Assembly: GCA_964479735.1 (NCBI GenBank)
Contig: CAYZNT010000014.1
Location: 2,917 to 66,916 of the forward strand
Origin: an uncultured Clostridia bacterium
GTDB lineage: Bacteria; Acidobacteriota; Aminicenantia; UBA2199
DNA length: 64,000 bases
Direction of reading: 5' to 3'
Shown: one piece after another, positions 1 through 22,039 of the stretch
How positions within the stretch are numbered: position 1 is the first letter of the stretch
Layout: every line of letters starts with the position of its first letter
Translations under genes and position numbers: made by a program
Notes under the pieces: generated by a model
Databases searched by the model: none
What the model was told of the DNA's origin: nothing
The model's input: only the letters and a program-made list of their open reading frames with translations

Positions 1-815
1 GGAGACTCCGCCCCCACTTCGTCTTCAACCTGGTGGAGACCGTGGCCGGAGACGGGCAGTTCGTCTACCTGGCGCCGGCGCTGCTCGAGTCGCTTCACCT
101 GCCCTACACCGGCTGCCCGCGCGACGCCATGTTCCTGACCTCCAGCAAGCTGCTGGCCAAGCGGGTCATGGCCGCCGCCGGGGTGCCCACGGCCCCCTGG
201 CTCGATGCCCAGGCGCCGGGGGGCAGGTTGCCGTCCCTGGCCGGGCGCTTCGTCGTCAAGCTGGCCTGGGAGCACGCCTCCATCGGCCTCGACGAGGGAG
301 CCGTGGTCGACGTGGCCGACGCCCGCGAGCTGCTGGCCATCGTCCGCGACCGGCAGCGGCGCGGCGGCAAGGAGTGCTTCGCCGAGCGTTACATCGACGG
401 CCGCGAGTTCAACGTCTCCATGCTGTCCGGAGCGGTGCTGCCGATTCCCGAGATGACCTTCGTCGACTTTCCCGACGGCAAGCCGAGGATGGTCGACTAC
501 CGGGCGAAATGGGACGAGGAGTCGTTCGAGTTTCGCAATACCCGGCGCCTGTTCGACCTGCCGCCCGAGGACCAGCCGCTGGTCGCCGAGCTGGAGGCCA
601 TCGCCCGCCGCTGCTGGGACCTGTTCGGCCTGCGCGGCTATGCCCGGGTCGACTTCCGTGTCGACCGTGACAACCGGCCGTTCGTGCTGGAGGTCAACAC
701 CAACCCGTGCATATCGCCCGCCGCCGGGTTGGCCGCCGCCGCCGCGCGGCGCGGCCTGGGATACCGGGAGCTGGTCGAGGCGATCGTCCGCGATGCCGTC
801 CGCCACCCCGACTGA
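1..815 (+). CDS. ATP-grasp family ligase (D-Ala-D-Ala ligase-like fold), 5'-truncated by the window edge
   Basis: The reading frame is open from base 3 (RLRPHFVFNLVETVAGDGQFVYL...) and stops at 813-815. The translation has ATP-grasp-like motifs (KLAWEHASIGLDEGAVV, ERYIDGREFNVSML, RVDFRVD...PFVLEVNTNP). Confidence 0.6.
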   Translation, partial: RLRPHFVFNLVETVAGDGQFVYLAPALLESLHLPYTGCPRDAMFLTSSKLLAKRVMAAAGVPTAPWLDAQAPGGRLPSLAGRFVVKLAWEHASIGLDEGAVVDVADARELLAIVRDRQRRGGKECFAERYIDGREFNVSMLSGAVLPIPEMTFVDFPDGKPRMVDYRAKWDEESFEFRNTRRLFDLPPEDQPLVAELEAIARRCWDLFGLRGYARVDFRVDRDNRPFVLEVNTNPCISPAAGLAAAAARRGLGYRELVEAIVRDAVRHPD

Positions 816-3680: not shown

Positions 3681-5014
3681 CGTTCCACCGGCACCACGGC
3701 CACGGTCACCCACTTGCGGCCGGCGAAGCACGTCCCGCCCACGCGGCGCAGGTCGGCGGAGCGCACCGCCTCCAGGCTGTCGTCCCGGCTGTCGGCTCTG
3801 TCGTCGCCGAGCAGCAGGAACCGGGCGGCGGCCGAGCTGAGGTTGAGGGCCGACTCGCCATAACTGCCCCCCTCCATGGCCATCTGCCGGCGGGCGGAAT
3901 CCAGCAGGTCGAACGCCTGCGCCTGGTAGGCCGGCGGGAAGTCGAGGCGGCTGAAGTTGAGCTGGCGGATGCCGGACAGGAAACGCGCCAGCCTTCCCTG
4001 CACGTTGCGCACCTGGCGCGCCGGCAGCAGCAGGTGCAGCAGCATGGCGCCGCCGTGGCGCATGGGCAGGTAGCGCATCTCCAGGCGGTCGACCTCCTCG
4101 AAGGGGCCGCGCAATGCGCCCGCCAGCAGCGGGTTGAGGCCGCGGCCGAGAATGAAGGCCAGAACCCCGAGAGCCGCCCGGTCCGGGTCGTTGTAGCCGC
4201 CGACCGGCCAGGCGACGAACAGGTGGGCCTGGCGGACGTCGAGCCGGATCTCGGCCGACTGGCTTTTCGTCAATGCCGGAGGCGGCGGCAGCGGGGCGGC
4301 GGCGGGCTCCGCCCGGCCGCCTTCCCAGGTGCGCCGGATTTCCGCCTCCATGTCGGCGGCGGCGAAGTCGCCCACCAGCGCCAGCGAACAGCGGGCCGGC
4401 ACCAGCAGGCGGCGGTGCAGCTCCTCCATCTCGGCCAGGGTGGCGGCGGCGATCGCCTGCGGGTCGCCCTCGATCGGGCGGCCGTAGGGATGGGAGCCGA
4501 ACAGCAGCTGCAGCGCCCGCAGCCTGCCGGCGGTGGCGGGCTCGTCGCGCAGCTGGGCGATCTCCTCGGCGAGGATGCGCTTCTCGGCCTCCAGGTGCTC
4601 CGCCTGCAGGCGCGGAAGGAAAACCTGCTCGCGCAGTCGGGCCAGCGCCCAGGCGGCGTGGGCGGCGGGGGCGCTGTACTCGAAGGTGATCAAATCGACG
4701 TCGGTGTGGGCGTTGGCCTGGACGCCGCGCGCGCGAAGCCGGGCCAGGCGCTCCGGCCCGGTCGCCTCGCGGGTGGCTCCGAAGAGCAGCAGGTGCTCCA
4801 GCAGGTGCGGCCAGCCCGCCGGCGCGGCGGCGGCGGGGGAGAGGTCCGCCGCCAGGGTCATGGCGCAGAGCGGCAGGTCGCGCTTCTCCTGCAGGATGAC
4901 CCGCAGCCCGTTGTCGAGGGTGAAGCGACGGAACCCCGTCTCCCCATCCGCGATGGCGGCCAGGGAGAGGGAGAACAGCGCACCGGCGATCAGGCCCCGC
5001 TGGCTGGCGATCAT
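3677..5014 (-). CDS. M16 family zinc metallopeptidase (pitrilysin/insulinase-like), active subunit
   Basis: 445 aa with an N-terminal signal-like region and the inverted zinc-binding motif HLLEH (HxxEH). It is translationally coupled to the downstream M16 paralog. Confidence 0.8.
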   Translation of the reverse strand: MIASQRGLIAGALFSLSLAAIADGETGFRRFTLDNGLRVILQEKRDLPLCAMTLAADLSPAAAAPAGWPHLLEHLLLFGATREATGPERLARLRARGVQANAHTDVDLITFEYSAPAAHAAWALARLREQVFLPRLQAEHLEAEKRILAEEIAQLRDEPATAGRLRALQLLFGSHPYGRPIEGDPQAIAAATLAEMEELHRRLLVPARCSLALVGDFAAADMEAEIRRTWEGGRAEPAAAPLPPPPALTKSQSAEIRLDVRQAHLFVAWPVGGYNDPDRAALGVLAFILGRGLNPLLAGALRGPFEEVDRLEMRYLPMRHGGAMLLHLLLPARQVRNVQGRLARFLSGIRQLNFSRLDFPPAYQAQAFDLLDSARRQMAMEGGSYGESALNLSSAAARFLLLGDDRADSRDDSLEAVRSADLRRVGGTCFAGRKWVTVAVVPVER

Positions 5015-5151
5015 GACCGGATTCTAGCACGGGGCGGCCGAAGCGGCAATCCGGGAACCGTGGCCGGCCGGCATTCCGTTCCGCGCGGCTTGAGATCAAC
5101 CTGACGAATGCGGTATTATTCATGTGCTGCTCAACCCCAAGGAGGTTTTTC

Positions 5152-6711
5152 ATGCAGACCTGGAAACGCATATCGCTGATCCTGGCATTGGCCGTCGCCT
5201 TAGCGCCCCTGTGGGCCGGCGGCGCGCCGTCCGATCCCCAGCCGCTGGCCAGCCTGCTGGTCGGTCCCTACGGCATCGACTGGCTGCCGAAGGTCAGCGC
5301 CGGCTCGTTCACCCTGAGAGTCGCCGGCCCCACCGGCGTCTTCCTGGCCAAGACCTTCCCCGGCGGCAAGACCCCGCGCTTCGAGGTTTCGGACCTCGCC
5401 GGCTCCTGCCCGGACGGCATCTACACCTGGGAGTTGCGGGCCAGCCCTCAGGGTGCGCCCGCGGTCCGCGGTGACGAGACGGGCGTGCCACCCGCGGGGG
5501 CCCCGGAAGCCCTCTCCCAGTCCGGCCACTTCCGCGTCTTGGGCGGCTCGATCCTGGTCCCGGCGGCCAAGGAGCCGCGGCTGGCCGGACCGCTGGACGT
5601 GGTGCACGCCGACGACGTGATCGTCACCGGGTCGCTCTGCATCGGCTACGACTGCGCCACGGACGGATCGGAGGATTTCGGCTTCGACACCATCAAGATG
5701 AAGGAAAACAACCTCCAGATCTTCTTCGACGACACCTCGACGACCGCCGGCTTCCCGGCCAACGACTGGCGCCTCATCGCCAACGACTCCGCCAGCGGCG
5801 GCGGCAACTACTTCTCGATCGCAGACGCGACCAACTCCAGGGTGCCGTTCAAGATCGAGGCCGGCGCCCCCACCAGCGCCCTCTACGTCGACGACTCCGG
5901 CCGGGTCGGCCTGGGCACCGCCACTCCCGTTCTCGACCTGCACATCCTCTCCGGCAATACCCCCTCCATCCGCCTCGACCAGGACACGACGTCCGGCTGG
6001 ACGGCCCAGGTTTGGGACATCGCTGCCAACGAGTCCAATTTCTTTTTACGCGACACCACCGGCGGCTCGAAACTGCCCTTCCGCATCCAGCCCGGGGCTC
6101 CCACCAACACGCTGACGATGAAGTCGACCGGCTACGTGGGCATCGGCACCTGGTCGCCCGAGAGCCACCTGGAAATCGAGGCCACCGGCGCCAACGTCGT
6201 GCTGGCCGTCCAGCGCACGGACGGCGCCACCATGAAATTGAGCGCCATGGGCAGCTCGGGGCAGATCGGCACGGTCACCGAGCACGCCCTGAACTTCATG
6301 ACCAACAACGTCAAGCGGCTGTCGGTGGGCGCCTCGACGGGCAACGTCGGCATCGGCGTGACGTCCCCGACCTACCCCCTGCACATGGCCAGCGGCGCCT
6401 ATTGTTCGGCCGGCGGGGCGTGGACCAATGCCTCGAGCATCGCCTTCAAGCAGAACGTCCAGGCCCTGGGGCTGGCGGATGCGCGCCGGGCGCTGGCCGA
6501 CCTGCGTCCGGTGTCGTTCGCCTACAAGGCGGACCCCGGCGAGGAGCACCTGGGGTTCATCGCCGAGGAGGTGCCGGAACTGGTGGCCACGGGTGACCGC
6601 CAGGGCCTGAGCCCGATGGACATCGTGGCGGTGCTGACCCGGGTGGTGCAGGAACAGCAGAAGACCATCGCCGAGCTGCGCGAACGCGTGGAGCAGCTGG
6701 AAAAGCGGTAA
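5152..6711 (+). CDS. secreted fibre-like protein with a C-terminal intramolecular chaperone (peptidase S74 / tail-fibre ICD) domain, paralog 1
   Basis: An RBS (aaggagg) precedes the ATG at 5152, and the signal peptide is MQTWKRISLILALAVALAPLWAGGA. The C-terminus matches the endosialidase/tail-fibre chaperone domain (SSIAFKQNVQAL...LRPVSFAYK...HLGFIAEEVPELV...MDIVAVLTRVVQEQQKTIAELRERVEQLE). The middle has two ~80-aa beta-rich internal repeats (FDDTS..ANDW..GAPT..VGLGT). Confidence 0.7.
   Translation: MQTWKRISLILALAVALAPLWAGGAPSDPQPLASLLVGPYGIDWLPKVSAGSFTLRVAGPTGVFLAKTFPGGKTPRFEVSDLAGSCPDGIYTWELRASPQGAPAVRGDETGVPPAGAPEALSQSGHFRVLGGSILVPAAKEPRLAGPLDVVHADDVIVTGSLCIGYDCATDGSEDFGFDTIKMKENNLQIFFDDTSTTAGFPANDWRLIANDSASGGGNYFSIADATNSRVPFKIEAGAPTSALYVDDSGRVGLGTATPVLDLHILSGNTPSIRLDQDTTSGWTAQVWDIAANESNFFLRDTTGGSKLPFRIQPGAPTNTLTMKSTGYVGIGTWSPESHLEIEATGANVVLAVQRTDGATMKLSAMGSSGQIGTVTEHALNFMTNNVKRLSVGASTGNVGIGVTSPTYPLHMASGAYCSAGGAWTNASSIAFKQNVQALGLADARRALADLRPVSFAYKADPGEEHLGFIAEEVPELVATGDRQGLSPMDIVAVLTRVVQEQQKTIAELRERVEQLEKR
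6211..6674 (+). repeat. 464-bp perfect direct repeat, copy 1 (3' end of fibre paralog 1)
   Basis: I found no mismatches against 7917-8380 (offset 1706 bp) by direct comparison. The ORF track shows identical sub-ORFs 6428..6610 / 8134..8316 and 6132..6353 / 7838..8059. Confidence 0.85.
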
Positions 6712-6737
6712 CCCACGAGCCTTCGCCGCGAATTCAT

Positions 6738-6782
6738 CCCCGGGCGGATGATGTCCCGTCCGCCCGGGGGAGGCGGTTTCTT
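6738..6782 (+). terminator. GC-rich hairpin downstream of paralog 1
   Basis: ccccgggcgga (6738-6748) pairs with tccgcccgggg (6759-6769), giving an 11-bp stem and 10-nt loop, followed by a ggcggtttctt T-containing tail. The next gene has its own promoter TTGAAA (6781-6786), 17-nt spacer, TACAAT (6804-6809). Confidence 0.4.
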
Positions 6783-6866
6783 GAAAAACCGGTTGCGTCC
6801 CGGTACAATCCCCCTTGCTTTCTGGTCCGCCTGGTTCCGATAGCGAATACGCAGGAGGTAGCGGAG

Positions 6867-8447
6867 ATGAAAACGTGGATCGGGTTGATTTTGGTTTGCA
6901 TCCTGCTTCTCGCCTCAGCGAATGGCCTGGCCGCCGCCGACCGTAACCCGGTGGCAGGATCCCTGGTCGGCCCGTATGGAATCGACTGGCTGCCCAAGGT
7001 CGGATACGGGGCGTTGCGCCTGACCGTTTCCGGTCCGCAGGGGGTCTTCCTGACAAAGAGTTTCCCGGGCGGCAAGACCCCGCGCTTCGAACTCAGCGAG
7101 ATCAAGGAGGGATGCCCGGACGGCATCTATACGTACGAACTGCGGGTGCAGGCTGCTGCGCGCCCGGAAAACCGCGATGGAACGCCCGATGCGTCCATCG
7201 CCGATACCCAGCGTCCGCTCATTCAGTCCGGCCATTTCCGCATCCGCGGCGGAGCGATCGTCGTCGCTTCCGGGGTGGAGGCCGGTACCGCGCCGCGCGA
7301 CGGCATCCTGGCCACCTACAACGAGGACTTGTACGTCAAGGGTTCTCTTTGCGTCGGCACCGACTGCGCCGATCCGGAGACATGGAACTACGACGTGATC
7401 CGGATGAAGGAGAACAACCTGCGCATCCATTTCGACGACACCAGCAGCACATCCTCGTTCCCGGCCAACGACTGGCGCATCGTCCTCAACGACTCCTCAG
7501 ACGGCGGCGGCAACTATTTCGCCGTGGAGGATTCGACGTCCGGGGACGTGCCGTTCACGATCGAGGCCGGCGCCCCCGCGAACTCGCTCTTCGTGGAAGA
7601 CTATGGCCGCATCGGCCTGAAGACCTCGACCCCGGCGGTCGAGCTGCACATGGTCGACGGCGACTCGCCGGCTGTGCGCCTGGACCAGGACACCACCTCG
7701 GGCTGGACGGCGCAGGCGTGGGACCTCGTCGGCAACGAAAGCAACTTCTTCGTGCGGGACGTCACCAACTCAGCCAGAATCCCTTTCCGCATCCAGCCGG
7801 GGACGCCTTCGAGCACCCTGAGCCTCAAGTCCTCGGGCTACGTGGGCATCGGCACCTGGTCGCCGGAATACAACCTGGAGGTCGAAGGCACGTCTGCCAA
7901 CGTCACCCTGGGCGTGCAGCGCACGGACGGCGCCACCATGAAATTGAGCGCCATGGGCAGCTCGGGGCAGATCGGCACGGTCACCGAGCACGCCCTGAAC
8001 TTCATGACCAACAACGTCAAGCGGCTGTCGGTGGGCGCCTCGACGGGCAACGTCGGCATCGGCGTGACGTCCCCGACCTACCCCCTGCACATGGCCAGCG
8101 GCGCCTATTGTTCGGCCGGCGGGGCGTGGACCAATGCCTCGAGCATCGCCTTCAAGCAGAACGTCCAGGCCCTGGGGCTGGCGGATGCGCGCCGGGCGCT
8201 GGCCGACCTGCGTCCGGTGTCGTTCGCCTACAAGGCGGACCCCGGCGAGGAGCACCTGGGGTTCATCGCCGAGGAGGTGCCGGAACTGGTGGCCACGGGT
8301 GACCGCCAGGGCCTGAGCCCGATGGACATCGTGGCGGTGCTGACCCGGGTGGTGCAGGAACAGCAGAAGACCATCGCCGATCAGCGCCGGGAGCTGGCCG
8401 AACTCGGCCGGCGCGTGGCCGAACTGGAGAGCAGGGAGACGCGGTAG
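6867..8447 (+). CDS. secreted fibre-like protein with a C-terminal intramolecular chaperone (peptidase S74 / tail-fibre ICD) domain, paralog 2
   Basis: An RBS (aggagg) precedes the ATG, and the signal peptide is MKTWIGLILVCILLLASANGLAAA. It shares domain order with 5152..6711 (conserved N-terminal domain VGPYGIDWLPKV...FPGGKTPRFE...CPDGIYT.ELR, two internal repeats). The C-terminal ICD is nucleotide-identical to paralog 1 over 464 bp, then diverges in the last ~20 codons. Confidence 0.7.
   Translation: MKTWIGLILVCILLLASANGLAAADRNPVAGSLVGPYGIDWLPKVGYGALRLTVSGPQGVFLTKSFPGGKTPRFELSEIKEGCPDGIYTYELRVQAAARPENRDGTPDASIADTQRPLIQSGHFRIRGGAIVVASGVEAGTAPRDGILATYNEDLYVKGSLCVGTDCADPETWNYDVIRMKENNLRIHFDDTSSTSSFPANDWRIVLNDSSDGGGNYFAVEDSTSGDVPFTIEAGAPANSLFVEDYGRIGLKTSTPAVELHMVDGDSPAVRLDQDTTSGWTAQAWDLVGNESNFFVRDVTNSARIPFRIQPGTPSSTLSLKSSGYVGIGTWSPEYNLEVEGTSANVTLGVQRTDGATMKLSAMGSSGQIGTVTEHALNFMTNNVKRLSVGASTGNVGIGVTSPTYPLHMASGAYCSAGGAWTNASSIAFKQNVQALGLADARRALADLRPVSFAYKADPGEEHLGFIAEEVPELVATGDRQGLSPMDIVAVLTRVVQEQQKTIADQRRELAELGRRVAELESRETR
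7917..8380 (+). repeat. 464-bp perfect direct repeat, copy 2 (3' end of fibre paralog 2)
   Basis: Identity begins at cagcgcacggacggcgcc and ends at aagaccatcgccga. The flanks on both sides diverge. Confidence 0.85.
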
Positions 8448-8475
8448 GGATCCCGGCGGGAGTCGGGAGGGGCAA

Positions 8476-10290
8476 TTGGCGGACGATCGGGACGCGGAAG
8501 TGGCGGAGAGGCAGGTGCCCGGCATATCCGGAAGGGGGCTGGACGGCAGGGGAGTCCGTCGGGCGCTTCCCCTGATGTTGGTGCTGCTGGCCGCCGCCTG
8601 CGCCCGCCCCTCCCTGCGCCAGGCGGAGACCTGGCGCGCCGGCCACGACTACGACAAGGCGCTGGCGCGCTACCTGAAGGCGCTGCGTGAAAGGCCCCAG
8701 GACATCCAGCTGAAGCTGGCCGTGGACGGCCTGCTGAAGGAGGCCGCCGCCTGGTACGGGGCCCGCGCCGCCCAGCTGGAGCAGGAGGGCCATGCCGCCC
8801 TCGCGCTCCAGCTCTACCGCAAGGCGCTGGAGTACGATCCCGGCGACCGTCGCACCCGACAGAGGCTGCAGGAGCTGCAGCGGCCGGGGGAAGGGGTCGA
8901 GACCATCGAGAGCCAGGCGCACGGGGCCGAGCTGGCGGTGAGCGTGCCGCCGTCCCTGGCCAGCCCGGAGCGGATCGACGTGGACTTCCGCCACAAGACC
9001 GGGTTGCTGGCCATCCTGCGCGTGCTGGCCCAGAGCGGCGGGGTCAACCTTCTGTTCGACCCGGATCTGGCCGACAAGCCGGTGGCGGTCACCCTGCGCC
9101 AGGTCACCCTGCGCGAGGCGCTGGACCGGATCTGCCAGATCTCCGAGAGCCGCTACTTCGTGCTGGACGGGCGCAACATCCTGGTGGCGCCGGACACCGA
9201 GAGCGCCCGGTCCCGCTACCAGGAGCTGGTCGTCAAGAACATCTACTTCTCCAACGTCGAGGCCGACGAGGCCAAGCGCATCATGGAGCAGGCCGCCCGG
9301 CTCCAGCGGCTGATCGTCAACAAGCCGAGCAACTCGCTCATCGTCGCCGATTCCGCCGAGAACGTCGTCCTGGCCGAAAGGCTCGCCCGCTTCATCGACA
9401 AGCGCAAGGGCGAGGTGGAGATCGACGTCGAGATCATGGAGGTGGACCGCAAGCGGCTGAAGCAGTACGGCACCGAGCTGTCGTCGTGGAGCGTCGGCGC
9501 CGCCCTGAGCGGAAGCGGGGGCGGCCTCTCCGCGGACGCGCTCCGGGCGGTCGACCTGTCGGCCGACGTCCTGCTGTCGGTGCCGCAGGCGGTCTGGCGC
9601 TTCATGGCCACCGTCACCGATTCGAAGATCCTGGCCCAGCCCAAGGTGCGCGGCATGGACAAGGAGCGGGTGGAGATCCAGCTCGGCGAAAAGCGCCCCA
9701 TCCCGACCACCACGTTCGTTCCCCTCTCCCAGGGCAGCCTCAACCAGCAGCCGATCACCTCCTACAGCATGACCGACGTCGGCATCACCCTGAACATCAC
9801 CCCGACCATCCATCTCAACGAGGAGGTGACCCTCGAGCTGGTGTTCAGCCTGACCTACGTCATCGACATCGGCAGCGCGACCCTGCCGCCGACGCTGGGC
9901 AACCGCCGGGTGACCACCCGGCTGCGCCTGCGCACCGGCGAGACGGGCATCATCGCCGGCTTGATGCGCGGCTCCACCACCACCTCGCGCACCGGCGTGC
10001 CGCTGCTCAACGACATCCCCCTGCTGCGCGACCTCTTCTCGTCCAACCGGCGCGAGCACGAGCGCACCGACATCCTGCTGAGCATCACCCCCCGCATCCT
10101 GCGCATGCCCGAGATCACCCGTGGCGACCTCGAGCCCCATTTCATCGGCACCGAGGCCCGGCCCGGGCTGCAGCGCGCCCGGGAGGCCCCCCCGGCCCCG
10201 CCTCCCCCCGCCCCGGCCCCGGTGAAGAAGGGGAAACCCGGGCGCAAGAAGGCGAACCCGGACGCGGCCCAGGCGGCTCCGCCGGGGTGA
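8476..10290 (+). CDS. secretin family outer-membrane channel lipoprotein (PilQ/GspD-like) with an N-terminal TPR region
   Basis: A possible TTG start at 8476 follows a gggagg RBS; the alternative ATG is at 8575. A lipobox-like LLAAAC is present. It has TPR-like helices (YDKALARYLKALRER, LALQLYRKALEYDP), an N0/STN-like domain (IDVDFRHKTGLLAILRVLAQSGGVNLLFDP), a Secretin_N domain (SLIVADSAENVVLAERLARFIDKRKGEVEIDVEIMEV) and the secretin C-domain (VPLLNDIPLLRDLFSS...ILLSITPRIL). It starts 28 nt after fibre paralog 2. Confidence 0.75.
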   Translation: MADDRDAEVAERQVPGISGRGLDGRGVRRALPLMLVLLAAACARPSLRQAETWRAGHDYDKALARYLKALRERPQDIQLKLAVDGLLKEAAAWYGARAAQLEQEGHAALALQLYRKALEYDPGDRRTRQRLQELQRPGEGVETIESQAHGAELAVSVPPSLASPERIDVDFRHKTGLLAILRVLAQSGGVNLLFDPDLADKPVAVTLRQVTLREALDRICQISESRYFVLDGRNILVAPDTESARSRYQELVVKNIYFSNVEADEAKRIMEQAARLQRLIVNKPSNSLIVADSAENVVLAERLARFIDKRKGEVEIDVEIMEVDRKRLKQYGTELSSWSVGAALSGSGGGLSADALRAVDLSADVLLSVPQAVWRFMATVTDSKILAQPKVRGMDKERVEIQLGEKRPIPTTTFVPLSQGSLNQQPITSYSMTDVGITLNITPTIHLNEEVTLELVFSLTYVIDIGSATLPPTLGNRRVTTRLRLRTGETGIIAGLMRGSTTTSRTGVPLLNDIPLLRDLFSSNRREHERTDILLSITPRILRMPEITRGDLEPHFIGTEARPGLQRAREAPPAPPPPAPAPVKKGKPGRKKANPDAAQAAPPG

Positions 10291-10351
10291 GCCCGCGGCG
10301 TTGACCGGGCCCGGTTTTTCTGTTACAACGGCGCCGACAGGAGGTGTCCGA

Positions 10352-11143
10352 ATGAAGATGCCGCTGTTCCAGGTCGATGCCTTCACCGAAAATCCGTTTC
10401 AGGGAAACCCCGCCGCCGTCTGTCTGCCGCCGAAGCCCTTGCCGGACGAGACGCTGCAGAAGATCGCCGCCGAGATGAACCTTTCCGAAACGGCGTTCCT
10501 GTGGCCAACCGCCGACGGCTGGCACCTGCGCTGGTTCACCCCGCGGGTGGAGGTCGACCTGTGCGGCCATGCCACCCTGGCCAGCGCGACCGTCCTGTAC
10601 GAGCGGGGGCTGCTGGAGAAGACGAGCGTGGCGCGATTCCAGACGCGCAGCGGCCTGCTGAGCGCGGCCTGGCGCAAGGGCTGGATCGAGCTGGACTTCC
10701 CCCGCCGCGAGGTGTCGGTGATGAGGATCCCGCAGCGGATCGTGCGCGCGGTGGGCGTGGCGCCGCTGGCCACCGGCGTATCCGGCGACAATTTCCTCAT
10801 CGAGACCACCAGCCAGGAGGAGGTCGCCCGGGCCCGGCCCGATTTCGTTTCCCTGGCCCGCCTCACCGATCACGGCGTGATCCTCACCAGCCACTACGCG
10901 GCCCCGGAATACGATTTCGTGTCCCGTTTCTTCGCCCCGGCCATCGGCATCAACGAGGACCCGGTGACCGGTTCGGCCCACTGCAGCCTGGCCCCCTATT
11001 GGGCCAAGCGCCTCGGCAAGAGCGAGATGACCGCCTACCAGTCTTCGGCCCGCGGGGGGGTGCTGCGGCTCCGGCTGGAGGCCGAGCGGGTCGCCATATC
11101 CGGCCGGGCGGTGCTGGTCTTCTCCGGCGAGTTGACGGTGTAA
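10352..11143 (+). CDS. PhzF family phenazine-biosynthesis-like isomerase
   Basis: The ATG at 10352 follows a caggagg RBS. The N-terminus MKMPLFQVDAFTENPFQGNPAAV is typical of PhzF, and the protein is ~263 aa. Confidence 0.8.
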   Translation: MKMPLFQVDAFTENPFQGNPAAVCLPPKPLPDETLQKIAAEMNLSETAFLWPTADGWHLRWFTPRVEVDLCGHATLASATVLYERGLLEKTSVARFQTRSGLLSAAWRKGWIELDFPRREVSVMRIPQRIVRAVGVAPLATGVSGDNFLIETTSQEEVARARPDFVSLARLTDHGVILTSHYAAPEYDFVSRFFAPAIGINEDPVTGSAHCSLAPYWAKRLGKSEMTAYQSSARGGVLRLRLEAERVAISGRAVLVFSGELTV

Positions 11144-11315
11144 GCCCGTCGGCCCGGGGTCCACCGGGCGACGAGCCGTCCGGAGCTCGGCCGGACGGCG
11201 CCTGGGCACGTGTTCCCGGCCATTTCCGCCGGCAGGGCATGGCCGGGCGACGAGCCCCCCGCGGCCGCGAGGGACGCATGTTGACAATACTTCCCGCATC
11301 GGCTAGCCTGCCGCC

Positions 11316-12167
11316 ATGAGACAGGCGCGTTACACCTACCCCGGCGCGTTCCACCACGTGATCAGCCGCGGGTGCGGCGACGTGTTCGCGGTTGCCGCGG
11401 ACCGGCGTGTTTTTCTCGCGATCCTCGGCGAGCGGGTGCGCCTGATGCGCATCCGGCTGGCGGCCTGGTCCCTGGCGAGCGACGGCTACGAGCTGGTGCT
11501 GGAGAACAGCGCCGGCCGCATGAGCGAGTTCCTGAAAGGGCTGAACGCCGCCTTCGCCATCCGCTACCGCGCCCGCCATGGAGGCGGAGGGCGGGTGTTC
11601 CGGGACCGCTTCTCCTCCGTCCTGATCCAGGACGAGCCGCACCTGCGCCTGGCCATCCTGCATGTCGCGCAGCGGGCGCCGCGGCGCCTTCCCACCGCCG
11701 CCTCCTGGTCGAGCCTCGCCGAGTTCCTGTCCGAAAAGGGGCCGGGCGTGACCGACGTGCCGTTCGTCAGCGCCCTGTGGGGGGGAAGAGAGAACCTGCG
11801 CAGGGCGCTGACCGCCCCGGCGGGCGCCGGGCTGCCTTCCTTTCCGACCACCTTCGGGCGCATCGCCGGCCACAAGGGCGCCCCGCCCGCCGCCCGCCTG
11901 GAACGGCGCGAAGCCCCGCCCGGATTCGCTTCGCGGGAGGCCGTGATGCGCCACTTCGCCGCCCGCCACGGGCTCGACGGCCCGCTGCCGCTGAAGACGC
12001 GTGCCGGCCGTCGCCTTCGCGCCGACCTGCTGCTCGAGCTCCGCGAAGAGTGCGGCCTGACCTACCGCGACATCGCCCGCCTGCCGGAGTTCGCCGACCT
12101 GAGCCCCGCCTCGCTGGGCAAGATCTACCAGGACGCGCGGCGGCGCCGGGGGGACCGCCGTGGATAG
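11316..12167 (+). CDS. RAYT-like (IS200/Y1-transposase-like) domain fused to a DnaA C-terminal HTH domain; probably a domesticated, non-catalytic transposase-like protein
   Basis: The N-terminus YTYPGAFHHVISRG resembles the REP-associated tyrosine transposase start. The expected HuH position reads GYELVLE, so the motif is degenerate. The C-terminus LREECGLTYRDIARL...SPASLGKIY is DnaA_C-like. GC-rich palindromes lie upstream. Confidence 0.55.
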   Translation: MRQARYTYPGAFHHVISRGCGDVFAVAADRRVFLAILGERVRLMRIRLAAWSLASDGYELVLENSAGRMSEFLKGLNAAFAIRYRARHGGGGRVFRDRFSSVLIQDEPHLRLAILHVAQRAPRRLPTAASWSSLAEFLSEKGPGVTDVPFVSALWGGRENLRRALTAPAGAGLPSFPTTFGRIAGHKGAPPAARLERREAPPGFASREAVMRHFAARHGLDGPLPLKTRAGRRLRADLLLELREECGLTYRDIARLPEFADLSPASLGKIYQDARRRRGDRRG

Positions 12168-16290: not shown

Positions 16291-16872
16291 ATGCCGACTG
16301 AAGCCCCCCACCCGGAGGCGCGCCGCACCCTGGCGGTTCCCATCCTGCAGCAAACCGGAGTGAAAATCGCCCGCTGCTACCAGTGCGGCAAGTGCTCCGC
16401 CGGCTGCCCGCTGGCCGAGGAGATGGATTACCCGCCGAGCCTGATCCTGCGCATGCTGCAGACCGGCTCGCCGGGGCTGGAGGAGAAGGTGCTGCGCTCC
16501 TACACCATCTGGCTGTGCGTCACCTGCGAGACCTGCATCGCCCGCTGCCCGATGGAGATCGACATCCCCAGGATGATGGACTGGCTGCGCCAGGAGTCGT
16601 TGCGCCGCGGCTGGGCCCACCGGCGCGCCCGCGACATCGTCCGCTTCCACCGCGCCTTTCTCGACTCCATCCAGGTCACCGGCCGGCTCTACGAGATCGG
16701 GCTGATCGCCGACTACAAGGTGCGCTCGCGCCACCTCCTGCAGGACCTGCTGCTGGCGCCCAAGATGTTCTTCAAGGGCAAGCTGAGCCTGATCCCGGAG
16801 ATGATCCAGGACCGGCTGGGGATGGCGCGCATCTTCGGCAAGACCCTGAACCGCGAGGAGGAACGGTCATGA
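16291..16872 (+). CDS. hdrC: heterodisulfide reductase subunit C
   Basis: Two 4Fe-4S motifs (CYQCGKCSAGCP, CVTCETCIARCP). The ATG follows a ggagacaatcc RBS. Confidence 0.8.
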   Translation: MPTEAPHPEARRTLAVPILQQTGVKIARCYQCGKCSAGCPLAEEMDYPPSLILRMLQTGSPGLEEKVLRSYTIWLCVTCETCIARCPMEIDIPRMMDWLRQESLRRGWAHRRARDIVRFHRAFLDSIQVTGRLYEIGLIADYKVRSRHLLQDLLLAPKMFFKGKLSLIPEMIQDRLGMARIFGKTLNREEERS

Positions 16873-17753
16873 CGCTCGGATTCTACCCCGGTTGTTCCCT
16901 GGAGGGCTCGTCGCGCGAATACAACGAGTCGGTGCAGGCCGTTGCCGAAGCCTCCGACCTGTTGCTCGAGACCGTCCCCGACTGGAACTGCTGCGGATCG
17001 ACCGCCGCCCACAACCTGAACCGCGACCTGGCGCTCGCCCTGCCGGCGCGGATCCTGGCCCTGGCGGACCAGGCCGGCATGACGGAAATGGTGGTTCCCT
17101 GCGCCGCCTGTTACAACCGCCTGGCGGTCACCCGCCACGAGCTGCAGGAAGACGAGGTGCTGCGCGCCCGGATTTCCCGGCTGATCGACATGGAGCTGAA
17201 GCTGGGCACCGAGGTCATCAACGTGCTCCAGATGCTTGACCGGCACGTCATGCCCCGGGTGGAAGGCCGCCTGAAAGCGCCCTTCGTCCGCAAGGTGGCC
17301 TGCTACTACGGCTGCCTGCTGGTGCGTCCCCACTCGGTGCTCCGGTTCGACCGCCCCGAGGACCCGCAGAGCATGGACGACGTGGTGCGCCGCATCGGCG
17401 GAATCCCGGTCGACTGGGCGTTCAAGGTGGAGTGCTGCGGGGCCGGCCTCTCGGTTTCCAAGACCGGCATGGTGGCCAATCTCTCCGGCCGCATCCTCGA
17501 CGACGCCCGCTCCCGCGGCGCCGAAGCGCTGGTGGTGGCCTGCCCCATGTGCCACTACAACCTCGACAGCCGCCGGCCGGTGATCAACAAGGCCATGGGC
17601 ACGACGTACGACATGCCGGCCATCTACATCACCCAGGCGGTCGGCCTGGCCATGGGCATCGACCGCCGCAAGCTGGGCCTGCACCGCCACCTGGTGCCGG
17701 TGCGGCTGGAAGCCGCGCCGCCGGCCGATCGGGCCGCCGCCGGGGAGGTGTGA
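16869..17753 (+). CDS. hdrB: heterodisulfide reductase subunit B (CCG domain)
   Basis: Cysteine-rich CCG repeats (NCCGSTAAHN, CAACYN, ECCGAG, CPMCHYN). It overlaps hdrC at ATGA. Confidence 0.85.
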   Translation: MTLGFYPGCSLEGSSREYNESVQAVAEASDLLLETVPDWNCCGSTAAHNLNRDLALALPARILALADQAGMTEMVVPCAACYNRLAVTRHELQEDEVLRARISRLIDMELKLGTEVINVLQMLDRHVMPRVEGRLKAPFVRKVACYYGCLLVRPHSVLRFDRPEDPQSMDDVVRRIGGIPVDWAFKVECCGAGLSVSKTGMVANLSGRILDDARSRGAEALVVACPMCHYNLDSRRPVINKAMGTTYDMPAIYITQAVGLAMGIDRRKLGLHRHLVPVRLEAAPPADRAAAGEV

Positions 17754-17755
17754 AC

Positions 17756-19768
17756 ATGGCCCGCATCGGAGTCTTCATCTGCCACTGCGGCGAGAACATC
17801 GGCGCCACCGTCGACTGCGCCCGGGTCGCCGAGGCCTGCGCCGGGATCCCCGGCGTGGCCCACGCCGTCGACTACAAGTACATGTGCTCGGACCCGGGCC
17901 AGACCATGATCAAGGAGGCCATCCGCAGCAAGAACCTGACCGGCGTGGTCGTGGGCGCCTGCTCGCCCCGCATGCACGAGCCGACCTTCCGCCGCGCCGC
18001 CGCCGAGGCCGGCCTCAACCCGTTCCTGGTCGAAATGGCCAACCTGCGCGAGCACTGCTCCTGGGTGCACGAGAAGGGGGAGGCCACCACCGCCAAGGCC
18101 ATCGACCTGGTGCGCATCCTCATCGAGAAGGTGAAGCGCAACAAGCCGCTCTACCCGATCAAGGTGCCGGTCACCAAGACGGCCCTGGTCGTCGGCGGGG
18201 GCATCGCCGGCATCCAGGCGGCCCTGGACATCGCCAACGCCGGCCACCGGGTGATCATGGTCGAGCGCGAACCGTCCATCGGCGGCCACATGTCGCAGCT
18301 TTCCGAGACCTTTCCCACCCTGGACTGCTCCCAGTGCATCCTGACCCCGCGCATGGTCGAGGTGGCCCAGCACCCCAACATCACCCTGCACACCTACAGC
18401 GAGGTGGAAAGCCTCGACGGTTTCATCGGAAACTTCAAGGTGAAGATCCGCAAGAAGGGGCGCAGCATCGACGAAAAGGCCTGCACCGGGTGCGGCCTGT
18501 GCACCCAGAAGTGCCCCAACCGCAAGATCCCCAACGCCTTCGACGCCGGCCTGGGCATGCGCCCGGCCATCTACGTGCCGTTCCCGCAGGCGGTTCCCAA
18601 CAAGCCGGTGATCGACCGCGAGCACTGCACCTACTACACCAAGGGCAAGTGCCGGCTGTGCGAGAAGGTCTGCCCCACCAAGGCCATCCGCTTCGACCAG
18701 CCGGACCAGATCGTCGAGGCCGATGTCGGCGCGCTGGTCCTGGCCACCGGCTTCGACGTCAAGCACGCCGACTTCTTCCCCGAGTACGGCCACGGCCGGC
18801 ACCAGGACATCATCGACGGGCTGCAGTTCGAGCGGCTGGCCTCCGCCTCCGGCCCCACCCTGGGCGCGATGAAGCGGCCGTCCGACGGCAAGACGCCGGA
18901 GACGGTGGTCTTCGTGGCCTGCGCCGGTTCGCGCGACCCGGCCAAGGGCATCGACTACTGCTCCAAGATCTGCTGCATGTACACCGCCAAGCACGCCATG
19001 CTCTACCGCCACAAGGTGCACCACGGCCGGGCGGTGGTGTTCTACATGGACATCCGGGCCGGGGGCAAGATGTACGAGGAGTTCGTGCGCCGGGCCATCG
19101 AGGAGGACGGGGTCGAGTACGTGCGCGGCCGCGTGTCGCGCATCTACGAGCGCGACGGCAAGCTGATGGTCAAGGGCGCCGACACCCTGCTCGGCGCGCA
19201 TCCGGTGGAGATCGCCGCCGACATGGTGGTGCTGGCCTCCGCCGGCGTGTCCAACCCGGGCGCCGAGGAGCTGGCCCAGAAGCTGCACGTCTCCTACGAC
19301 GCCTACAAGTTCTTCGCCGAGGCCCACCCCAAGCTGCGGCCGGTGGAGACCAACACCGCCGGCATCTTCCTGGCCGGCGCCTGCCAGGCCCCCAAGGACA
19401 TCCCGGAATCGGTGGCCCAGGCCTCCGGGGCGGCGGCCAAGGTGGCCGCGCTCTTCTCCCAGGACGAGCTGACGCGAGAGCCGCAGATCGCGGTGGTCAA
19501 CCGCAGCGCGCCGCCGCTCTACTCCACCTGCGTGGGGTGCTTCCTGTGCCAGCCGGCCTGCCCCTACCAGGCCATCGAGCGGGAGGAGATCCGGGACCGC
19601 AGCGGCAAGCGGATCAAGACCGTGGCCCGGATCAACGAGGGCCTGTGCCAGGGCTGCGGCACCTGCGTCGCCCTGTGCCGCTCCAAGTCCATCGACATCC
19701 AGGGCTACAGCCACGAACAGGTCTACGCCGAGGTGATGAGCGTGCTGCAAGGGAGTGAATCCGAATGA
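17756..19768 (+). CDS. hdrA: heterodisulfide reductase subunit A (FAD, Fe-S)
   Basis: An N-terminal Cys cluster (IGVFICHCGENIGATVDC), the FAD motif VVGGGIAGIQAA, and several CxxCxxCxxxCP ferredoxin motifs. ~670 aa. Confidence 0.85.
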   Translation: MARIGVFICHCGENIGATVDCARVAEACAGIPGVAHAVDYKYMCSDPGQTMIKEAIRSKNLTGVVVGACSPRMHEPTFRRAAAEAGLNPFLVEMANLREHCSWVHEKGEATTAKAIDLVRILIEKVKRNKPLYPIKVPVTKTALVVGGGIAGIQAALDIANAGHRVIMVEREPSIGGHMSQLSETFPTLDCSQCILTPRMVEVAQHPNITLHTYSEVESLDGFIGNFKVKIRKKGRSIDEKACTGCGLCTQKCPNRKIPNAFDAGLGMRPAIYVPFPQAVPNKPVIDREHCTYYTKGKCRLCEKVCPTKAIRFDQPDQIVEADVGALVLATGFDVKHADFFPEYGHGRHQDIIDGLQFERLASASGPTLGAMKRPSDGKTPETVVFVACAGSRDPAKGIDYCSKICCMYTAKHAMLYRHKVHHGRAVVFYMDIRAGGKMYEEFVRRAIEEDGVEYVRGRVSRIYERDGKLMVKGADTLLGAHPVEIAADMVVLASAGVSNPGAEELAQKLHVSYDAYKFFAEAHPKLRPVETNTAGIFLAGACQAPKDIPESVAQASGAAAKVAALFSQDELTREPQIAVVNRSAPPLYSTCVGCFLCQPACPYQAIEREEIRDRSGKRIKTVARINEGLCQGCGTCVALCRSKSIDIQGYSHEQVYAEVMSVLQGSESE

Positions 19769-20199
19769 GCGCCTTCGAACCCAAGATCGTCGCCTTCGTC
19801 TGCAACTGGTGCACCTACGCCGGGGCCGACCTGACCGGCACCAGCCGCATCAAGTACGCGCCCAACGTCAAGATCATCCGTTTCCCCTGCACCGGGCGCA
19901 TCGACTTCATGCTGCTGCTCAAGGCCTTCGCCCAGGGGGCGGACGGCATCATCGTCTCCGGCTGCCATCCCAACGACTGCCACTACACCTCGGGAAACTT
20001 CCACGCCCGCCGCCGCTGGATGGCCTTCCGCTCGCTGCTGGACTTCATGGGCATCGACGTGCGCCGGGTGGTCTTCTCGTGGGTGTCGGCCGCCGAGGGC
20101 GCGAAGTGGGCCGAGCTGGTCAACGCCAGCGTCGAGGCGGTCCGCAAGCTGGGCCCCTTCGAGAGCTACCAGCGCCTGCGCCGCGCCGGCATCGCCTAG
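19765..20199 (+). CDS. MvhD/FlxD-like hydrogenase iron-sulfur delta subunit
   Basis: FVCNWCTYAGADLTG...CTGRID...SGCHPNDCHY, 144 aa. It overlaps hdrA by 4 nt. Confidence 0.8.
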   Translation: MSAFEPKIVAFVCNWCTYAGADLTGTSRIKYAPNVKIIRFPCTGRIDFMLLLKAFAQGADGIIVSGCHPNDCHYTSGNFHARRRWMAFRSLLDFMGIDVRRVVFSWVSAAEGAKWAELVNASVEAVRKLGPFESYQRLRRAGIA

Positions 20200-20211
20200 G
20201 AGGAGGACGCC

Positions 20212-21015
20212 GTGGACGAACTGAGACAGAGAGCCAACCAACTGCTGGCCAGCGGCCAGGTGAAGGTGGTCATCGGCTACGCCGCCGGATCCGCCGGCAG
20301 GGCGCGGCCGGTCTTCATCGCCGACCCCACCGCCACCGGCCAGCTGATCTTCGACGATCGCTGCAAGAACAACCTGGCCGTCTACCTGCCGCGCCCGGAG
20401 GTCCGGCGGATGGGGCGGGCCGCCCTGGTGGCCTCGCTGAGCGGCATGCGCGCCGTGCTGCAACTGGCCGCCGAAGCCCAGCTGAGCGACACCGACCTGC
20501 TGGTGCTGGGGATATCCGCCGACGGCCGGCTGCTCGACCTGCCCGACCTGGCCGCCGTCGAGGCCCAGGTCAACGCCGTTCCGCTCGGGTTGAGCGAGAC
20601 CGAGGCGGCCGAACTGGACCGTCTAGGCGCCCTGCCCCCGGAGGGGCGATTCCGGTACTGGCAGGAGCAGCTGGGGCGCTGCATGAAGTGCTACGCCTGC
20701 CGCCAGGCCTGTCCGCTCTGCTACTGCACGCGCTGCACCGTCGACCTCAACCAGCCGCAGTGGATTCCGGTGCCGGCCCACGACCTGGGCAACCTGGAGT
20801 GGCACGTGATGCGCGCCATGCACCTGGCCGGGCGCTGCGTCAACTGCGGCGAGTGCGCCCGCGCCTGCCCCGCCGGCATCCCCCTGAACGTGCTCAACCA
20901 CGTGCTGGCCGAGCAGATCTTCGGCGATTTCGGGTTGCGCGCCGGCACGCGGATGAAGCCGGAGTACGCCTTGTCGACCTTCAAGCCCGACGACAAAGAG
21001 AGCTTCATCAGGTGA
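20212..21015 (+). CDS. 4Fe-4S dicluster protein (FlxC-like)
   Basis: CMKCYACRQACPLCYC and CVNCGECARACP motifs. Confidence 0.6.
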   Translation: MDELRQRANQLLASGQVKVVIGYAAGSAGRARPVFIADPTATGQLIFDDRCKNNLAVYLPRPEVRRMGRAALVASLSGMRAVLQLAAEAQLSDTDLLVLGISADGRLLDLPDLAAVEAQVNAVPLGLSETEAAELDRLGALPPEGRFRYWQEQLGRCMKCYACRQACPLCYCTRCTVDLNQPQWIPVPAHDLGNLEWHVMRAMHLAGRCVNCGECARACPAGIPLNVLNHVLAEQIFGDFGLRAGTRMKPEYALSTFKPDDKESFIR

Positions 21016-21019
21016 GACG

Positions 21020-22039
21020 ATGAACATCGAACGGAAACTGCTGAAGAAGGGATCGCTGGACAGGCTGCTGGAGACGCTGCGGCAGTCCGGATTCAGGACC
21101 TACGGTCCGGTGCAGGCCGACGAGCGCGTGGATTTCATGCCGCTCGAGACCGCCGGACCGCTGCAGCTCGACTACCTGCAGACGGCGCAGTCGGCCAAGT
21201 TCGCCGTCTTCCCCCGGGTGGAGGAGCTGCTGCGCTACCGCACGACCGAAAACGGGTTGCAGGTGGAGGCGCGCGACCTCTCCGCCCTGCCCGAGGTCGC
21301 GCTGGTCGGCCTGCACCCCTGCGACGCCGCCGCCATCGCCTCGCTGCGGGCGATCTTCACCTGGGACTATCCCGACGCCCCGTTCCAGGCGAGGCTGGAA
21401 AAGCTGACCGTCATCGGCCTGGCCTGCACCCGGGCCGACGAGCACTGCTTCTGCTCCTCGGTCGGCGGGGGTCCGGGCGACCTGCGCGGCTCCGACATCC
21501 AGTTGACGCCGCTGGCCGACGGCGACTTCCTGGCCGAGATCGTGACCGACCGCGGCCGGCGCATCGTCGCCCTCGCGCCCGGGCTGTTCGACGACGCCCC
21601 CCCGGTGGCCAAGGAGGAACGCCTGGCCACGGTCGCACCGGCGTTCCAGGCCGAAGCGCTGCGCGCCAAACTCAACGAACGCTTCGACGACGAGGATCTC
21701 TGGCGAAGCCAGGCGCTGCGCTGCCTCGGCTGCGGCGCCTGCGCGTTCGTCTGCCCGACCTGCGCCTGCTTCGACATCCAGGACGAGGGCAGCCGCCAGG
21801 CCGGCCAGCGGCTGCGCTGCTGGGACTCGTGCGGGCTCGCCCTGTTCACCCTGCACACCTCCGGCCACAACCCGCGCCCCGAGCAGGCCGCCCGGTGGCG
21901 GCAGCGGCTCATGCACAAGTTCTCCTACATGCCGGAGCGCCAGCAGGTGCTCGGCTGCGTGGGCTGCGGGCGCTGCTCGCGCGCCTGCCCCGCCGACATG
22001 GAGATCCGCGAGCACGTCCTGGCCGTGCTGGAGGCCTGA
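21020..22039 (+). CDS. iron-sulfur protein (FlxB / AsrA-like)
   Basis: CLGCGACAFVCPTCAC and CVGCGRCSRACP motifs, resembling sulfite reductase A-subunit-like Fe-S proteins. Confidence 0.6.
   Translation: MNIERKLLKKGSLDRLLETLRQSGFRTYGPVQADERVDFMPLETAGPLQLDYLQTAQSAKFAVFPRVEELLRYRTTENGLQVEARDLSALPEVALVGLHPCDAAAIASLRAIFTWDYPDAPFQARLEKLTVIGLACTRADEHCFCSSVGGGPGDLRGSDIQLTPLADGDFLAEIVTDRGRRIVALAPGLFDDAPPVAKEERLATVAPAFQAEALRAKLNERFDDEDLWRSQALRCLGCGACAFVCPTCACFDIQDEGSRQAGQRLRCWDSCGLALFTLHTSGHNPRPEQAARWRQRLMHKFSYMPERQQVLGCVGCGRCSRACPADMEIREHVLAVLEA

Follow-up and report, generated by a model that had tools for sequence, protein, structure and literature searches.

The stretch of DNA analysed here, called the window throughout, comprises 64,000 nucleotides from an uncultured Clostridia bacterium that GTDB places in the Aminicenantia of the Acidobacteriota (GenBank assembly GCA_964479735.1, contig CAYZNT010000014.1, positions 2,917 to 66,916 of the forward strand). 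Its open reading frame (ORF) at 8476-10290 (+) encodes an outer-membrane secretin with a predicted lipid anchor and a module of tetratricopeptide repeats (TPR). By its sequence, the protein belongs to an undescribed Acidobacteriota family of TPR-liposecretins, one sub-clade of which is consistently coupled to genes for fibres that end in a Peptidase_S74 (S74) domain and have the layout of the mosaic adhesive trimers (MAT) of Bdellovibrio. The secretin is a candidate export route of this MAT-type fibre family.

Architecture and lipid anchor of the secretin

The gene shows the codon-position G+C pattern of real genes, with a G+C content at third codon positions (GC3) of 0.94 in a window of about 70% G+C, and its product counts 604 aa from TTG 8476. 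It divides into the following parts (AF2, AlphaFold2 model):

8476-10290 (+): TPR-liposecretin gene, 604 aa from TTG 8476, with GTG 8515 as the likelier start
8599-8601 (+): codon of the lipobox cysteine, predicted residue 1 of the mature protein (alignment and PROSITE-type pattern)
8608-8880 (+): TPR-like helical module of about 2.5 repeats, aa 45-135 (sub-threshold Pfam matches, family profile, AF2)
8971-9192 (+): N0/STN-type domain, aa 166-239 (sub-threshold Pfam match, AF2, Foldseek)
9229-9408 (+): single Secretin_N (N3-like) domain, aa 252-311 (sub-threshold Pfam match, AF2)
9412-10104 (+): secretin barrel and gate domain, aa 313-543 (Pfam, profile matches to PDB entries)
10153-10287 (+): Pro-/Lys-rich C-terminal tail, at the position of the pilotin-binding S-domain

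In a Pfam search with the single sequence only the Secretin domain (PF00263) is clear, at aa 378-543 with 112 bits against a cut-off of 27.5 (E = 2.9e-32); STN/N0 (aa 190-239, 3e-04), Secretin_N (aa 255-311, 1.2e-03; above cut-off in many relatives) and several TPR models (aa 51-131) all stay below threshold. A profile built from 35 family members matches consensus-TPR structures (best E = 2.7e-17) as well as the solved secretins of type II secretion systems (T2SS), type IV pili (T4P), Tad pili, type III secretion systems (T3SS) and phage f1 (GspD, PilQ, RcpA, InvG, pIV). The AF2 model shows TPR-like helices at aa 45-135 (pLDDT about 90), followed by a disordered linker, N0 at 166-239, one N domain at 252-307 (both at pLDDT 80-90) and the barrel at 313-543; when it is compared with known structures by Foldseek, PilQ of V. 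cholerae, InvG and GspD rank top, with E down to 2.6e-18, and the N0 and N domains resemble the N0-N1 regions of XcpQ, EscC and MxiD. An earlier note, made from the letters of the window, had read the order lipobox, TPR, N0, Secretin_N and secretin, with a TPR-like region of about 100 aa; Pfam, alignment, family profile and AF2 model bear this order out, and the repeat region stands on the family profile and on the modelled helices.

The protein belongs to none of the curated secretin types by score: against the NCBI equivalog and subfamily models it reaches 133 bits for GspD (TIGR02517; cut-off 351), 100 for PilQ (TIGR02515; cut-off 284), 76 for MshL (cut-off 250) and 75 for SctC (cut-off 238). 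It has N0 and one N domain only, in place of the N0-N1-N2-N3 series of GspD, and Pfam finds no AMIN domain in it. The basic character of the C-terminal tail is widespread, with K and R making up 17-46% of the tail residues in 33 of 35 aligned relatives.

The cysteine at codon 8599-8601 (aa 42 in TTG numbering) is invariant in all 35 aligned relatives. The strict PROSITE-type lipobox pattern, which reads LLAAAC in the window protein, is matched by this protein and by 25 of the relatives; the other ten keep the cysteine and deviate at position -2 of the lipobox. This lends firm ground to the lipobox proposed in the earlier note, which fared less well with the start codons between which it had left the choice, TTG 8476 and ATG 8575. 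From ATG 8575 there remains only MLVLLAAAC, which has no charged n-region, while TTG 8476, the choice of public gene callers, places 41 aa with an acidic start ahead of the cysteine. Neither fits best when leaders are compared with those of the relatives, which in sequences matching the lipobox pattern span 18-41 aa, mostly 20-35. The better-fitting start is GTG 8515, preceded by GGAG at 6-nt spacing, because its leader of 28 aa ('..GRGVRRALPLMLVLLAAAC') lies within the range of the relatives and has an Arg-rich n-region. The mature lipoprotein is identical from all three starts.

With its signal peptide II and lipobox cysteine, the features by which liposecretins are recognised, the window secretin is predicted to be acylated. 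BfpB and TcpC are liposecretins as well. For HxcQ of P. aeruginosa, the lipid anchor is described as self-piloting the protein to the outer membrane (Viarre et al. 2009, as cited in PMC12475490). All three resemble the window secretin in having an N-terminal lipobox of their own, but have no TPR module and stand inside complete T2SS or type IVb pilus operons, whereas the window secretin carries a TPR module and has no machine genes nearby. The combination of lipid anchor and TPR next to a secretin ring is that of the pilotins PilF of P. aeruginosa, PilW of Neisseria, Tgl of Myxococcus and TadD, the last of which binds the secretin RcpA; these, however, are separate polypeptides with more repeats, whereas in the window secretin about 2.5 repeats are fused in cis. 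PilF (weakly, E about 1e-05) and the RcpA-TadD entry (8odn) are among the PDB matches of the family profile, and the resemblance to PilF is of the generic kind found between TPR proteins and does not speak for orthology. PilQ of type IVa pili and GspD of the T2SS have the same barrel, gate and N0/N folds; the window secretin differs from them in the missing AMIN domain, the single N domain after N0, the absence of an S-domain and the partner genes, which were not found in the window. Finally, pIV is likewise a structural match with a short N0, one N domain and a barrel, and passes a filament of about 6-7 nm; unlike the window secretin, it is neither lipidated nor TPR-bearing, and it works with the phage inner-membrane proteins pI and pXI.

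The secretin family and its coupled fibre genes

A search of 5.8 billion proteins yields about 80 full-length relatives of the secretin, at 31-58% identity and E-values from 1e-196 to 1e-71, nearly all from metagenome-assembled genomes (MAGs) of Aminicenantes or Acidobacteriota and most of them already flagged as TPR plus Secretin. The relatives are alignable end to end (57% mean column identity over 35 sequences), and 52 invariant columns are shared by the window secretin with relatives down to 36% identity. Scans of genomes and metagenome contigs gave 121 secretin loci, flanked by up to 10 kb to either side; ORFs were called in these, the neighbours clustered, and the clusters mapped back by tblastn over 129 related loci. 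The class of neighbour tracks the sub-clade of the secretin (ranges are identity to the window secretin):

28-35%: Vicinamibacteria, soil Acidobacteriota and a few Aminicenantes; pilM-N-O-P upstream, prepilin-like genes downstream
36-43%: MAGs of Aminicenantes and Acidobacteriota, metagenome contigs; giant CARDB-domain protein upstream (13 of 24 loci), Big_1/PKD lipoprotein downstream
44-50%: Aminicenantes MAGs, metagenome contigs; Big_1 lipoprotein upstream
48-50%, a second group: MAGs of Aminicenantes and Acidobacteriota, metagenome contigs; 180-aa secreted protein upstream, Sortilin/BNR downstream
52% and above, the sub-clade of the window: window, Aminicenantes MAGs, metagenome contigs; S74 fibre genes

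In a large soil group within the 28-35% band, none of the defined neighbour classes was found. The non-fibre classes outside the pilus operons are c17 with Sortilin/BNR, the giant CARDB protein and the Big_1/PKD lipoprotein, two of which have visible signal peptides. In a neighbour-joining (NJ) tree the non-pil secretins of the Aminicenantes form one clade, sister to the pil-linked secretins, one of which comes from an Aminicenantes-labelled MAG; the pil operon arrangement is kept in L037/L103, from Aminicenantes-labelled MAGs, and in L093 and L101, from unlabelled metagenome contigs. Single MAGs can hold paralogous secretins with different neighbours (L005/L045, L010/L023, L011/L020), which fits specialisation better than one general pilus ring. 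Each sub-branch of the secretins that left the pilus operon is coupled to the gene of a different large secreted protein.

The pil-linked secretins at 28-35% identity have the same order of lipobox, TPR, N0, Secretin_N and secretin, with a cohesin domain added at the C-terminus; in the Aminicenantes branch this cohesin-like domain is lost and a short Lys-rich tail stands in its place. Since the architecture recurs in members of complete pilMNOP-secretin-prepilin operons, the TPR-lipobox design is ancestral to the family and not an adaptation of an orphan, and it is the departure from the pilus operon that is the derived trait. The earlier note had likened a lipoprotein secretin with its own TPR module to pilotin-independent, self-targeting secretins; the module and the lipobox are real, and they are not peculiar to this gene but standard in a large Acidobacteriota family. 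In a major phylum that has received little study, a lipid anchor fused to TPR, a pilotin in cis, would on this evidence be how secretins are built by default.

In the window, two co-oriented paralogous fibre genes lie directly 5' of the secretin, preceded by M16 peptidases and CorA; 3' of it follow a PhzF-like gene (start 10352) and then unrelated metabolic genes. The fibre genes are:

5152-6711 (+): fibre gene 1, 519 aa, with signal peptide, beta-sandwich, beta-rich shaft and S74 domain (Pfam S74, 1.6e-08)
6867-8447 (+): fibre gene 2, 526 aa (Pfam S74, 1.5e-08; AF2, profile, Foldseek)

Such genes adjoin the secretin, on the same strand and in one to four paralogous copies, in all nine distinct loci of the sub-clade that have flanking sequence. 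These nine are the loci of secretins at least 52% identical to that of the window, plus L050, L071 and L106:

Window: two fibre genes
L001 = L006: three fibre genes
L003 = L008: one fibre gene
L007: two fibre genes
L009: two fibre genes
L005: four fibre genes, two on each side of the secretin
L050: C-terminus of a fibre at the contig edge
L106: one fibre gene
L071: two fibre genes, downstream

The fibre-linked secretins are monophyletic in the NJ tree, except for that of L005. What surrounds the module differs between groups. In the L001-type loci (L001, L003, L007 and L009) it is preceded by ABC transporter genes and followed by AP_endonuc_2; in the window M16 peptidases precede it and PhzF follows; the flanks of L005 hold yet other genes. 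None of the flanking proteins of the window recurs near other family secretins, apart from one unrelated match. The pair of fibre and secretin has thus been kept through at least three rearrangements. Comparison of these nine of nine loci, in at least three unrelated contexts, lends support to the suggestion of the earlier note that the secretin may serve the fibre genes beside it, and the conserved pair makes for a testable hypothesis, in which fibre display by a compact two-gene system depends on the neighbouring secretin. Literature searches returned no paper linking secretins to S74 or tail-fibre proteins, and nothing relevant on secretins or pili of Aminicenantes.

Genes of a secretion or pilus machine were looked for throughout the window. 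Pfam scans of the roughly 45 ORFs with the best coding signal contain no T2SS, T4P, Tad or T3SS components; no gspC-M genes were found within the 64 kb; and tblastn over the same range with the pilM/N/O/P and prepilins of distant relatives finds nothing, as do tblastn searches of the window with the Big_1 lipoprotein (c1), the giant CARDB protein (c8), c17 and c12. The absence of neighbouring pilM/N/O/P, gsp, tad and T3SS genes noted earlier therefore holds for the whole window. The label 'orphan' attached to the gene on that ground is apt as far as machine genes in the window go, but not in the functional sense, since its fibre neighbours are conserved in the sub-clade.

Fibre gene 1 has AGGAGG 7 nt ahead of its ATG at 5152, is called at 519 aa in public data (P0103), has its predicted catalytic Ser codon at 6433-6435 and matches the fibre N-domain HMM at 3.1e-35. 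Fibre 2 comprises a signal peptide (aa 1-24), an N-domain (30-132), a shaft (185-410) and the S74 domain (425-526), with Ser425 and Lys430 encoded at 8139-8141 and 8154-8156; in the AF2 model of the monomer, a signal helix is followed by a beta-sandwich modelled with confidence (30-132), the beta-rich shaft (185-410) and an S74 domain with a long terminal helix. Pfam Peptidase_S74 is matched at 35 bits in both fibres (cut-off 22). An alignment of 60 homologues shows no variation at K430 and S426 and at least 90% conservation at S425; the S-x5-K dyad that results falls on position 1 of the S74 model.

The family of these fibres is very large: of the candidates scored, at least 3374 match at E <= 1e-05. 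Identity to fibre 2 is 46-70% in the best 120, with nearly every alignment spanning more than 90% of the query; where a name is given it reads 'tail fiber domain-containing protein', and the proteins so named belong to Aminicenantes, Acidobacteriota and Candidatus Deferrimicrobium. The N-domain, a beta-sandwich of about 110 aa, recurs in 1591 cluster representatives found by its HMM, almost always at residues 30-150; the best 150 of these are short fibre-like proteins and a few giant repeat proteins.

The Peptidase_S74 domain is the intramolecular chaperone of endosialidases and tail fibres. It forms the C-terminus of MAT fibres of the S74 subgroup as a chaperone-protease (PMC10769870). Caulton et al. 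(2024) defined the MAT family for the fibres with which Bdellovibrio recognises prey; there are 21 paralogues, 13 with a terminal S74 domain, and the fibres are displayed on the surface and have a signal peptide and a beta-rich N-domain of about 130 aa in common (PMC10769870). The fibre family profile of the window matches only four PDB sequences, three of which are Bdellovibrio fibres: Bd2133 (8ond, 3.4e-09), Bd3182 (8ojn, 5.9e-07) and 8oml; in a Foldseek search with the fibre 2 model, 8ond and 8ojn rank first. The window fibres share with Bd3182-type MAT fibres the series of signal peptide, beta-rich N-domain, beta-helical shaft and S74, and both form multi-copy families; they differ in length (about 520 aa against about 1000) and in the motif (SSxxxK against SDxxxK), the likeness of the N-domains is one of position and layout alone, and the window organism, unlike Bdellovibrio, is not a known predator. 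Profile and model together suggest that the window fibres have a MAT-type layout with a shaft related to those of Bd3182 and Bd2133; trimerisation and S74 cleavage are predicted.

A block of 464 bp, covering the distal shaft and most of the S74 domain, is 100% identical between fibre gene 1 (6211-6674) and fibre gene 2 (7917-8380), which are about 70% identical elsewhere; this suggests recent gene conversion of the 3' parts between the two paralogues. The public short-read (Logan) contigs break about 125 bp 5' of the secretin, 31 codons before the end of fibre 2; the repeat may be the cause of this break.

Three further observations concern the wider families. The pil-linked secretins end in their cohesin domain (Pfam Cohesin, 6.6e-11) after a Pro-rich linker, as in L039 (10022-12367), L035 and L033. 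A lipoprotein, c1, with a Big_1/invasin-like Ig domain and with or without PKD, adjoins the secretin in most other branches of the family (for example L013 9237-9938, L020 1835-3094, L033 12175-12882), and in about ten pilMNOP-linked loci lies some 0.3-1.7 kb downstream of it; it was not found in the fibre-linked sub-clade or the window, and may be a conserved accessory protein of the TPR-liposecretin family. Finally, in L048 (13906-14337, -) and also in L049 (9015-9446) two fibre genes are followed by the gene of a 143-aa protein consisting only of N0/STN, which is 31% identical to the N0 domain of the window secretin and has a putative lipobox of its own (SPGC); this is a second, weaker tie of fibres to secretin-type parts.

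Proposed fibre export and its rivals

The functional reading that we favour, at about even chances and on the evidence of synteny, is that the self-piloting secretin lets the fibres cross the outer membrane. The family would be specific to Acidobacteriota and derive from a secretin that served a type IV pilus-like machine; in the Aminicenantes-related lineage of the window, the secretin would have left the pilMNOP operon to travel as a module with paralogous genes for trimeric adhesins of the MAT type, which resemble phage tail fibres. The fibres, which have signal peptides, would reach the periplasm via Sec, trimerise from the C-terminus with the help of the S74 intramolecular chaperone, and lose the latter by self-cleavage at Ser425, where the motif of the Ser-Lys dyad is conserved. 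The fibre, about 4 nm wide, would then cross the outer membrane tip-first through the secretin ring, and its conserved N-terminal beta-sandwich would, speculatively, stay near the cell, maybe held at or near the ring. The lipid anchor and TPR would act as a pilotin in cis, delivering the ring to the outer membrane and stabilising it there, by analogy with HxcQ, PilF, PilW, Tgl and TadD; that passage could proceed without a pseudopilus is again speculation. A fibre width of 40 Å fits an open secretin channel. The tip of the Bd3182 fibre is 40 Å across (PMC10769870).

Drawn to its full extent, this would be a minimal fibre-secretin system for surface display without pilus, pseudopilus or needle, in which a lipid-anchored TPR ring exports Sec-delivered MAT-type trimers; in this form we regard it as unlikely. 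The ring would perhaps also hold the fibres by their N-terminal domain, and other Aminicenantes paralogues would likewise export other large surface proteins. To our knowledge, secretins are otherwise known only as the outer-membrane part of larger machines, namely T2SS, type IV pili, Tad pili, T3SS and filamentous-phage export, so that a minimal system, if true, would be a sixth and machine-independent use. It would also provide a concrete candidate for the surface anchor of MAT fibres in predatory Bdellovibrio and for their export route. The MAT paper leaves the anchor unidentified and does not address the route; the words 'secretin' and 'secretion' are absent from it and it reports no secretin link for Bdellovibrio (PMC10769870).

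Several observations weigh against export through the secretin. The four L001-type loci are syntenic with one another and do not count as independent cases. When sampling starts from fibre genes, six fibre loci turn up without an adjacent secretin:

L046: a solitary fibre gene in a 9.1-Mb genome
L047/L143: six fibres
L145: five fibres
L146: four fibres
L144: one fibre
L048/L049: two fibres

Adjacency is therefore not obligatory, and another route to the surface is possible. Five of the six directly adjoin surface-glycan genes, four of them (L047/L143, L145, L144 and L048/L049) genes for a Wzm/Wzt-type ABC exporter and sulfotransferases, the fifth (L146) genes for sulfotransferase, glycosyltransferase and sugar modification; the fibres are linked to surface-glycan loci at least as often as to secretins, and the gene content points to a link between fibres and sulfated surface polysaccharide. 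The HMM of the fibre N-domain finds no match among the neighbours of the other secretin paralogues, so that there is no shared targeting module for a general rule by which a secretin exports the cargo encoded next door. The retention of N0, lastly, suggests some periplasmic or inner-membrane partner; we know of no secretin that works without an inner-membrane partner, and none was found within the 64-kb window.

Among the alternatives most weight goes to a displaced pilus or T2SS secretin, whose machine genes would lie elsewhere in the genome and whose adjacency to fibres would reflect co-regulation or lineage-specific synteny in place of transport; we consider this, too, to be on the unlikely side. 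It accords with the distant members of the same architecture in pilM-N-O-P/secretin/prepilin operons, with the pil arrangement kept in some Aminicenantes-labelled MAGs (L037/L103) and on the unlabelled contigs L093 and L101, and with the N0 domain, which in known systems binds PilP or GspC, and the absence of machine genes covers the 64 kb of the window. What it does not readily accommodate is the conservation of the fibre pair in nine of nine loci over at least three contexts, the occurrence of two or more paralogues with different neighbours in single MAGs, which speaks for specialisation, the loss of the cohesin-like C-terminal domain of pil-linked members in the whole Aminicenantes branch, and the scores far below the PilQ and GspD cut-offs. 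Less probable again is that the secretin forms a polysaccharide nozzle, exporting or helping to export a surface glycan to which the fibres bind. The Wzm/Wzt exporters, sulfotransferases and glycosyltransferases beside fibre arrays elsewhere would suit such a role, as would the polysaccharide binding typical of S74-type beta-helical fibres (PMC10769870) and a 2025 paper in which slime secretion by cyanobacteria and myxobacteria is reported to require secretins (PMC12475490); the slime work, however, bears on the window by analogy only, and no genes for glycan synthesis or export stand beside the secretin in the window or the related fibre-secretin loci, so that we hold this explanation to be improbable.

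Chance adjacency to an inactive relic is very improbable: in so large and multi-copy a fibre family some accidental neighbours are to be expected, but not nine of nine in the sub-clade across different contexts, and a relic is hard to reconcile with an intact ORF, its GC3 of 0.94 and the 52 invariant columns. A remnant of a prophage or filamentous phage, combining a pIV-like secretin with phage tail fibres, is the least credible of all and was rejected. The S74 domain and part of the shaft do resemble phage tail fibres, and pIV is among the structural matches of the secretin. Yet 2.9 million viral contigs (IMG/VR) contain no relative of the secretin, and 50,697 phage records give only two weak matches to it, annotated as HofQ and spanning 28% of the query. 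What viral contigs share with the fibres is confined to the S74 domain and part of the distal shaft (query aa 270-522); neither the N-domain nor the full length is ever matched, and phage genomes give only weak matches to the shaft and none to the N-domain. No phage genes flank the module, and its fibres carry Sec signal peptides.

Transcription signals and other features of the window

A consensus scan of the module finds the following sites, the promoters being consensus matches only:

5090-5119 (+): promoter-like TTGAGA-18-TATTAT, 5' of fibre gene 1
6760-6786 (+): terminator-like hairpin and T-tract after fibre gene 1
6781-6809 (+): promoter-like TTGAAA-17-TACAAT, 5' of fibre gene 2
10303-10326 (+): terminator-like hairpin and T-tract directly after the secretin stop, before the PhzF-like gene

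Between 4900 and 11400 there are three promoter-like sites where 0.3 are expected from shuffled sequences, and Rfam has no match in 4800-11400. Because sites flank fibre gene 1, and because the scan finds no promoter-like or terminator-like site in the gap between fibre gene 2 and the secretin (28-67 bp), the likely transcription units are fibre gene 1 by itself and fibre gene 2 together with the secretin; consensus matches are indications of this, not proof.

Three other regions of the window, all on the forward strand, may be mentioned. At 29306-30415, 3' of a HlyD-like gene, an ORF of the AcrB family (369 aa) aligns to no more than positions 2-351 of the ACR_tran model, which has 1021 positions, and this RND pump gene looks truncated or frameshifted in the assembly. 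The ORF at 11316-12167 (283 aa) has no Pfam match at E <= 0.01; a homologue of its product, 36% identical, is encoded about 3 kb 5' of a family secretin in L056, and the N-terminus of the window protein ('YPGAFHHVISRG') resembles a Y1-transposase-type motif. A heterodisulfide-reductase/MvhD-like cluster at 16383-22039, with a CCG domain, an HdrA-like flavoprotein with Fer4, FlpD/MvhD and more Fer4, indicates by its predicted functions an anaerobic host metabolism with flavin-based electron bifurcation.

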